Assembly (NCBI GenBank): GCA_947630725.1
Contig: CANRIS010000005.1
Span: forward strand, 36,887-100,886
Reading direction: 5' to 3'
From: an uncultured Clostridia bacterium
GTDB lineage: Bacteria > Bacillota > Clostridia > Lachnospirales > CAG-274
Length of the DNA: 64,000 bases
The translations under genes and the position numbers were made by a program. Below are positions 19,569 through 45,470 of the stretch, piece by piece (positions within the stretch are counted from its first letter, which is position 1; each line of letters starts with the position of its first letter). The notes under the pieces were generated by a model. That model was not told the DNA's origin and made no database searches. It saw nothing but the letters and a program-made list of their open reading frames with translations.

Positions 19569-19806
19569 GGGACACCATCATCAAAATGCAGTCGCATTTT
19601 GATGAGTACCAAATGTGCGTGCCGGGCAAGCCGGCGACTTCATTTGGAGGTAGGAATATAAATTTAAATTTTTCAAAAACTACGTTTTTTCAAATTTAAA
19701 TTTATTCCTCGGACGGGCAGAGCTCGTCCTGCGGATTAAAGTCTGCGACGCTTCTTAGAAATTTAATTTTCGGACACCACCTGCGGATTAAAGTCTGTGA
19801 TGATGC
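19569..19806 (+). repeat. family-2 modular hairpin-mosaic intergenic repeat, copy 1
   Basis: Contains the modules CATCAAAATGC-n-GCATTTTGATG and CCAAATG..GCCGGGCAAGCCGGC..CATTTGG. Also contains an AT-rich long hairpin, GGACGGGCAGAGCTCGTCC, and two CTGCGGATTAAAGTCTG units. The same modules occur at 27692-27894 and 45006-45305. Confidence 0.85.
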
Positions 19807-19970
19807 ATACAATATATTTGTCGAATAACTTTTTTGATTATCAGTCAATTTACTTTTTTAACAGTATAAACAGGACAGCAGGACAATACATATGTACTGT
19901 CCTGCCGTTGGTTTTTATATTATATATTTTATATTTTGTGTGTTGTTATGTCTTGGCAGACGGAATTTTG

Positions 19971-27565: not shown

Positions 27566-27691
27566 TATTTTGATTATATAATTAATGATTTGTCGGTAAA
27601 TAGGACATACTTATTTTATTAAAGAAACAGACTGTTAAAAAAGTAAATCTGTTTATAATAATAAAAATATTCGACAAATATATTATATACA

Positions 27692-27894
27692 GCGTCGCAG
27701 ACTTTAATCCGCAGGTAGTGTCCGAAAGAAATCGGATTGCCCGAAGGGCAACTTTTCCGCAAGGAAAAGCACTGAGCGTAAGCTTTGCCCGCCCTTTATC
27801 CAAATGAAGTCGCCGGCTTGCCCGGCACGCACATTTGGCCTCATCAAAATGCGGCTGCATTTTGATGACAGCGTGTAGATTTTTCGACACGCTG
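27692..27894 (-). repeat. family-2 modular hairpin-mosaic repeat, copy 2 (inverted)
   Basis: Its reverse complement carries CAGCGTGTCG..CGACACGCTG, the CATCAAAATGC hairpin, the CCAAATG..CATTTGG module and one CTGCGGATTAAAGTCTGCGACGC unit. The central module is replaced by three different small hairpins. Confidence 0.85.
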
Positions 27895-28057
27895 AAAGAA
27901 GACATGAAGATATTTTTGTGATATGCCGCAGGGCTGTCGCATAATATCAGGCGGTGCAGCCGCAGGACGAATATCATTGTCCTTATAATGCACCAAAAAT
28001 AGACAATTCAAATAATCATAACCTTTTTTTTTGAAAAAAATATGTCTATTATTACAA

Positions 28058-44935: not shown

Positions 44936-45005
44936 TTTATTGAGGATACCGATACTACCCGTTAATCCGGATTGCAAAAAAGGACTTGGGAAACTCTCAA
45001 GTACG

Positions 45006-45305
45006 CAGCGTGTCGGGAAAAGCCGACACGCTGTCATCAAAATGCGGTCGCATTTTGATGAGGCCAAATGTGCGTGCCGGGCAAGCCGGCGACTTCATTT
45101 GGATAAAGGAATATAAATTTCAATTTGTTCCAAAAACTGCGTTTTTTCGCAAATTGAAATTTATTCCTCGGACGGGCAAAGCTCGTCCTGCGGATTAAAG
45201 TCTGCGACGCATCTCATCCTGCGGATTAAGGTCTGCGATGCATCTCATCCTGCGGATTAAAGTCTGCGATGCATCTTGTTTTGCGGATTAAAATCTGCGG
45301 CGAAT
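45006..45305 (+). repeat. family-2 modular hairpin-mosaic repeat, copy 3 (inside ABC operon 2)
   Basis: All modules are present in the same order as in copy 1. It ends in about 4 tandem 31-bp units. Confidence 0.85.
45187..45305 (+). repeat. 31-bp tandem repeat (about 3.8 units)
   Basis: CCTGCGGATTAAAGTCTGCGACGCATCTCAT at 45187, 45218 and 45249, with a degenerate unit at 45280. Confidence 0.9.
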
Positions 45306-45470
45306 ATTATATGATCCATATCCAAATTTCAAAAAAAGGACTTGGGAAATTCTCAGGTCCTTTCTTTAACTGAACAGATAGGTTTCATTATTCTCGGGCG
45401 GAGCAGGGATACCGTTGAACGATAATAACGACAAAAGAAAAACAGAAACAGAAGAACAGGAGGGCGTTTT

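Follow-up and report, generated by a model that had tools for sequence, protein, structure and literature searches.

Insertion sequences of the IS1182 family recognise stem-loops rather than sequences (PMC5678879, PMC4923244, PMC3098183): IS1272 and TnSha1 of the staphylococci insert at terminator stem-loops and delete them (PMC5678879, PMC4923244), and ISCbo5, a family member in Clostridium botulinum group III and C. novyi, is located within hairpins at gene ends (PMC3098183). In the IS1272 model, joining at the feet of a cruciform with duplication of the stem-loop by gap repair ("pathway b") was drawn by the authors as a possibility only (PMC5678879). A modular build of repeated DNA is exemplified by the BOX elements, which are arranged as boxA-boxB(n)-boxC (PMC3049150).

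The stretch analysed here (the window; 64,000 nucleotides, G000:C5:36887-100886) is part of G000, a 2.9-Mb draft genome with 42.8% G+C in 83 contigs, and had been described preliminarily as carrying three copies of a mosaic of hairpin modules a to f. All three copies are present where they had been placed, and the sequences given there for modules b to f are correct; the proposed limits, however, had missed both ends of the element, i.e. the inverted repeats, a tail of ~65 nt and the long target duplications. With the ends included, the elements are very probably gene-less MITEs with IS1182-type ends that insert at terminator hairpins, the whole hairpin being duplicated on both sides. They are small, non-coding and dispersed, carry inverted repeats, are flanked by duplications that differ from site to site, and have an autonomous insertion sequence (IS) with matching ends. 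Rfam 15 returned hits at chance level only (gathering threshold for the window; E-value mode for copy 3 and for copies from nine relatives), the plasmid and phage collections contained no sequence match, and exact module c was without a match in 185,000 species genomes. Since neither Rfam nor the plasmid and phage collections contained a match, the sequence family is new, although its kind is not: the element adds a well-supported case to a class of mobile DNA already on record.

BLAST and pattern scans over the whole of G000, including the genome-wide BLASTN comparison proposed earlier, returned 62 merged loci, of which 10 lie at contig ends where the repeat itself broke the assembly; in total, these amount to ~50 elements in many module combinations. 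The repeat breaks assemblies of these gut Clostridia genomes, and a firm annotation for it is now given. The copies are 92-98% identical in pairwise comparison across ~200 nt, range in size from 265 to 540 bp and share the module order A-B-C-D-E-F in all elements found in G000. Modules are gained, lost and repeated throughout this genome (A, D and X are optional, Y occurs zero to three times), and the one to four F units counted in the window likewise describe the genome-wide range; more than 25 kinds of module string resulted, an unusually pronounced mosaicism. The main strings are L-B-C-D-(E)F-R (~270 bp), L-B-C-D-X-Y-F-R (~400 bp) and L-B-C-D-(E)F-Y-F-R (~390 bp). The earlier characterisation as a dispersed, non-coding hairpin mosaic in both orientations was borne out. 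The open reading frames spanning the window copies (including 27582-27977) had no Pfam match, and a promoter scan detected no consensus promoter within the element. A canonical copy of 273 nt is predicted to fold into six successive hairpins, A to F (-103 kcal/mol on the sense versus -94 kcal/mol on the antisense strand; z-scores -9.5 and -8.0, respectively).

The full element opens with CAGCGTGTCGAAAAA, a left inverted repeat that doubles as the 5' arm of hairpin A, and continues with hairpins B, C and D, the optional module X (~75 nt, between D and E), hairpin E, F, an optional module Y (~100 nt, three hairpins) with another F, the tail and the right repeat TTTTTTGACAGTCTG. The tail, which follows the last F, is AT-rich (consensus GCTGTATATAATATATTTGTCGAATATTTTTCTTATTATAAGTAGATTTACTTTTTTGACAGTCTG), and its final 15 nt, CAGACTGTCAAAAAA, are the inverted complement of the opening 15 nt of module a. 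Common ends of the form CAGnnTGTC were observed directly, both inverted repeats being present in 16 G000 copies; the reverse-complemented right end reads CAGACTGTCAAAAAAG and agrees with the left end at ~11 of 15 positions. This imperfect agreement, together with the many G000 copies that have a degenerate right end or lack A, weighs against the MITE reading. The motif AGTCTG is common to F and the right end; the resemblance is weak, and that F might be an internal copy of an element end is speculation. An outward promoter in the tail was considered and rejected: relatives show no conservation of the TATAAT-like sequence with which the tail begins, and the scan yielded no consensus site.

Copy 1 (19570-19868, plus strand; G000:C5:56464-56751) is truncated at its left end and has a degenerate right repeat. 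Module a, described as absent from this copy, is indeed missing as a full module, but a degenerate remnant of A, GGACACCA, is kept at 19570-19577, followed by the B hairpin (19578-19605), C (19609-19647), D (19653-19708), E (19711-19729), F (19730-19751), a second F (~19781-19803) and the tail with the degenerate right repeat (19804-19868), the AT-rich part terminating in TTTACTTTTTTAACAGTATA. Its right end adjoins the terminator hairpin of a minus-strand glgC-like gene; on the left side no clear duplication survives. Copy 2 (27628-27894, minus strand; G000:C5:64514-64780, string LBCYFR) is complete with 267 bp and has the order A-B-C-Y-F-tail: it is without D, the ~100-nt three-hairpin Y replaces the short e, and a single F is present between the inverted repeats CAGCGTGTCGAAAAA (at 27894) and TTTTTTAACAGTCTG (ending at 27628). 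Copy 3 (45006-45329, plus strand) comprises A-B-C-D-E and four F units and has a non-canonical right end without the canonical inverted repeat, yet it is bracketed by a hairpin duplication, a combination that speaks against the MITE reading. The left repeat of this imperfect 31-nt duplication (44975-45005, plus strand; CAAAAAAGGACTTGGGAAACTCTCAAGTACG) is the terminator hairpin of an SBP gene, and its direct repeat on the right (45330-45360, plus strand; CAAAAAAAGGACTTGGGAAATTCTCAGGTCC) is a complete hairpin with the T-run kept. The four F units of copy 3 (45189-45302) form a minisatellite-like array with a 31-nt period (CTGCGGATTAAAGTCTGCGAYGCATCTCATC). On the sense strand of the element, modules C and Y contain weak terminator-like hairpins trailed by T-rich runs (window 27811-27827 and 27732-27752, minus strand), and one more was seen at L016 869-885, again on the sense strand. 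No empty site was found for the three window copies, which are occupied in every other readable sample: the sites of copies 1 and 3 are each occupied in two further samples (metagenome assemblies in the case of copy 1), and the contigs of four other samples break inside copy 2.

In many cases an entire host hairpin is repeated directly on both sides of the element, as can be read from the flanks: the offsets from both element ends are 0 and 0, and the duplication, 20-35 bp in length and varying with the hairpin, starts and stops at the hairpin feet. In G000, the alignment score of an element's own two flanks averaged 12.4 versus 7.4 for flanks taken from different elements, and reached at least 18 in 9 of 23 cases (control maximum 16); among the perfect duplications are those of 31 nt at C1:125.6 kb and of 30 nt at C19:30.6 kb. 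When a degenerate E+F pattern was run against all species genomes, 113 loci were located in ~20 MAGs of uncultured Clostridia from rabbit, ruminant, bird and human gut. Among 27 full elements from ~20 other genomes, 22 had a flank score of at least 15, as opposed to 0% of the cross-controls, and every duplication was a hairpin. Insertion at palindromic or stem-loop targets, a trait of the IS1182 family, is a property of these elements as well: both they and the parent IS occupy hairpin-forming sites, for the most part terminators at gene 3' ends. A first hairpin counter was discarded as too permissive (32% of random sites scored), and an energy comparison gave only a modest signal (p = 0.009).

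One insertion site was directly observed in both states. At G000 C19:30586-30978, in the interval separating a thioesterase gene from the gene for CTP synthase, ERZ27249610 carries the element and ERZ27249352 lacks it: a single 30-bp hairpin (AAGAGCCTTTCCCGAAATATATGAAAAGCT) is present at the empty site, and two copies of it around a 396-nt insert at the occupied one. The empty allele could in principle have arisen by deletion between the two 30-bp repeats instead of being ancestral, which counts against the MITE reading; the pair reveals the structure of the insertion whichever allele came first. A synteny-based empty site at C19 was not obtained from the sister species, the left flank being non-syntenic there. 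Comparably, an A-less relative of the element lies between two genes in G008 and G001, and G002 to G006 lack it at this locus.

The parent IS was found by searching G000 for the inverted-repeat pair at wider spacing. It extends over 1527 bp (C11:59603-61129), its ends CAGACTGTCAAAAAG and CAGACTGTCAAACAA match those of the MITE, and its open reading frame matches NF033551 (IS1182; E 8.5e-76) and Pfam DDE_Tnp_1_6, so that the transposase family is directly evident. Both assembled transposase genes of G000, this copy and the one on C53, are pseudogenes with a common frameshift and in-frame stop, and a truncated fragment scored 255.8 bits, just under the NF033551 cutoff of 270; no intact copy was found in G000, a point against the MITE reading. 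At least five copies or fragments of the IS occur in this genome (C11, at ~601-2127 of locus L021, G000:C11:59003-61729; C53, C32, C64 and C15), those other than the C11 and C53 copies ending at contig breaks. Several of them adjoin a GC-rich hairpin, CCCGCCTnTTTAGGCGGTGGG, that may be part of the other repeat ("family 1") of the genome. At G000:C24:36848-36950, a MITE is cut off behind module C and fused to the IS end that carries the hairpin (TGTCAAACAACCTCTGTTCC...GGAACAGGGGTTGTT), a MITE-IS junction or recombinant.

An intact IS was present in a sister genus (G015), encoding 475 aa without stops (417.2 bits against the NF033551 cutoff of 270) between the ends CAGTCTGTCAAAAAAG and TTTATTGACAGACTG. 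On either side of it stands the 25-bp hairpin ACCGCCGCATTTATAATGCGGCGGT, duplicated perfectly, and a MITE adjoins this same hairpin on the other side; IS and MITE hence share both their ends and the unusual type of duplication. The order at this locus (L057, G015:C1:106925-110896, reverse ~880-2625) is a tandem of MITE, hairpin, intact IS and the same hairpin, one terminator having been used by two elements with successive copies of the 25-bp hairpin as a result. The MITE would probably be mobilised in trans by the IS1182-family transposase. The empty and occupied alleles together with the intact parent IS provide clean evidence of whole-terminator-hairpin duplication of IS1182 type.

According to the mechanism proposed here, the transposase would recognise the extruded stem-loop or cruciform rather than a sequence, the transposon 3' ends would join at the 5' feet of the extruded cruciform, and gap repair would then copy the whole stem-loop, as in pathway b of the IS1272 model (PMC5678879), so that the hairpin and not the enzyme would set the length of the duplication. 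The duplication data fit this pathway, their length following the hairpin and their limits being the hairpin feet. The T-run would stay with the downstream hairpin copy and termination should persist, which would make terminators safe havens: since the terminator with its T-run would survive downstream of the insert, insertions would do little harm. The module mosaic would most likely stem from exchange or nested insertion at internal hairpins, from loss of perfect palindromes such as A, and from slippage among the F units.

The genomic setting of the elements was compared with this target preference. All elements are intergenic relative to the crude gene calls; the flanking genes are divergent in only 4 of 45 cases in G000, and in the other genomes 28 elements lie between convergent and 9 between divergent genes, a distribution that fits terminator targeting. 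Of 49 G000 cases, 36 have the left end turned towards the 3' end of a co-oriented gene (p = 0.0014), compared with only 47 of 78 in the other genomes (47:31, p = 0.09), where orientation in tandem gene contexts was 16:15. Two G000 elements are located directly 3' of tRNA genes (C2:38614-39014 and C3:51016-51260), with no clear duplication seen; the acceptor or T-arm of the tRNA may have served as hairpin target in both. The family is a natural data set for target choice by structure-directed DDE transposases.

The elements agree with IS1272, TnSha1 and ISCbo5/ISBma2 (C. botulinum group III and C. novyi; PMC3098183) in the IS1182 transposase (NF033551, here in the partner IS), in the hairpin targets at gene ends in intergenic DNA without a sequence consensus, and in the sub-terminal hairpins at the IS ends; they differ from the IS of this family in lacking a transposase and in having a modular hairpin interior. 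The target hairpin is deleted by IS1272 and duplicated as a whole here; that the best-studied relative removes its target without duplication is an argument against the MITE reading. Correia elements have a TA target duplication and 26-bp inverted repeats, whereas the elements described here have hairpin duplications of 20-35 bp and the CAGnnTGTC ends. REPs are units of 20-40 nt tied to RAYT (Y1) transposases; the units found here measure 265-540 bp and have inverted repeats and duplications of DDE type. With the REP/BIME repeats of Proteobacteria they nevertheless share the hairpin mosaic at gene 3' ends, stems kept by compensatory change and a conservation in place that suggests a possible host-level role. 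The candidate assignments to omega-RNA, TnpB, REP or RAYT systems were set aside in view of the DDE-type inverted repeats and the IS1182 partner.

That the elements belong to the BOX family of Streptococcus or the Correia family of Neisseria, a likeness raised in the preliminary description, draws on their modular, hairpin-rich build, in which the number of an internal unit varies; kinship, however, is scarcely credible. The host is an uncultured gut Clostridia lineage, the ends, duplications and partner IS are all of IS1182 type, and the duplicated hairpins of 20-35 bp are unlike the TA of Correia. We know of no inverted-repeat or hairpin-duplication signature for BOX. The BOX elements of S. 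pneumoniae and S. suis are likewise composite, with fixed outer and variable inner modules, predicted stem-loops and intergenic position (PMC3049150), but have no known partner transposase and are apparently dormant (PMC3049150), in contrast to the present elements with their IS1182-type partner. Judged by host phylogeny and the IS1182-type ends, membership in BOX is very unlikely. The resemblance to BOX and Correia is an analogy only, confined to the modular and hairpin-rich build: since the ends match those of an IS1182-family IS, the element is a MITE of a hairpin-targeting transposon family and no BOX or Correia relative.

A further reading concerns the interior of the element and is compatible with its being a MITE: the hairpin core (B to F) could have a host-level or cis-acting role of its own, transposition having merely delivered it, for example as a REP/BIME- or BOX-like or protein-binding element, an mRNA 3'-end element or a sub-terminal transposition site. 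We consider this possible, though the balance is against it. In its favour, E+F (~45 nt) is the sole part conserved outside the species, in 13 of 24 genomes of the same family from ~10 genera, and is absent from the IS; a search of 16 other families of the order yielded no instance. The unit consists of CCTC, a covarying 8-bp hairpin around GGGCAAAGC and then TGCGGATnnnAGTCTGCGACGC. The elements of G014, G015 and G020 share the inverted repeats, the A hairpin, a B-like hairpin and E+F with G000, differ from it in their middles and have perfect hairpin duplications. Pairing in the E stem is kept by compensatory changes (such as GGACG/CGTCC, GGGTG/CACCC, AGGCG/CGCCT, AAACG/CGTTT): 93% of the cells are paired and four of the eight pairs have changed on both sides, which was equalled in 0 of 500 shuffles. 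Moreover, G000 copies agree at 96-99% in modules B, C, D and F, compared with 76% for the tail and right repeat and with duplications that differ by 0-20% (tail and duplications together being put at 10-25% divergence); in species of the same genus, the cores are 81-93% identical to the G008 copy (cross-species BLAST), with degenerate ends. This contrast between core and tail could reflect constraint on the core, hairpin-centred concerted evolution, or a tail that tolerates change or changes fast. Against such a role, quasi-palindrome template switching can produce compensatory change in DNA palindromes mechanically, and concerted evolution could keep the cores alike; the E stem also shows both G.T and A.C intermediates. 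That the core, above all the 45-nt E+F, is kept by selection independent of the IS1182-type ends is put forward as a doubtful, tentative suggestion; E+F could act in cis as a portable module, serving as a sub-terminal site for transposase or host factor or else as a REP/BIME-like host element. If so, MITE lineages in ~10 genera of gut Clostridia would have kept E+F while swapping all other modules and even losing their ends. The family also suits the question why the hairpin interiors of MITEs outlast the ends in conservation.

A role as strand-specific RNA was rejected for the core: the orientation bias of 36:13 in G000 is weak elsewhere (47:31, and even in tandem contexts), which together with the coexistence of G.T and A.C intermediates argues against it. 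Much the same holds for the wider reading of the elements as repeated genes for a structured non-coding RNA (guide, omega-like or small regulatory), to which the very stable fold, somewhat better on the sense strand, and the helices covarying across genera might point. No Rfam family came at or near threshold for G000 or for the copies of nine relatives, an internal consensus promoter was not found, ~50 copies occur in both orientations with variable module content, and the inverted repeats, duplications and empty site account for the spread without an RNA role. IS1182 transposases are DDE enzymes for which we know of no RNA guide, and this reading is distinctly improbable. For the MITE itself, a nested rearrangement is visible when orthologous copies from two close species, L177 (G001) and L054 (G008), are compared: in the G001 copy of the A-less relative, a nested module of 175 nt replaces the 5' half of hairpin E and the hairpin is re-created (GCGAcgaaagcTCGC), as would be expected if modules were exchanged, or one was inserted, at a hairpin inside the element.
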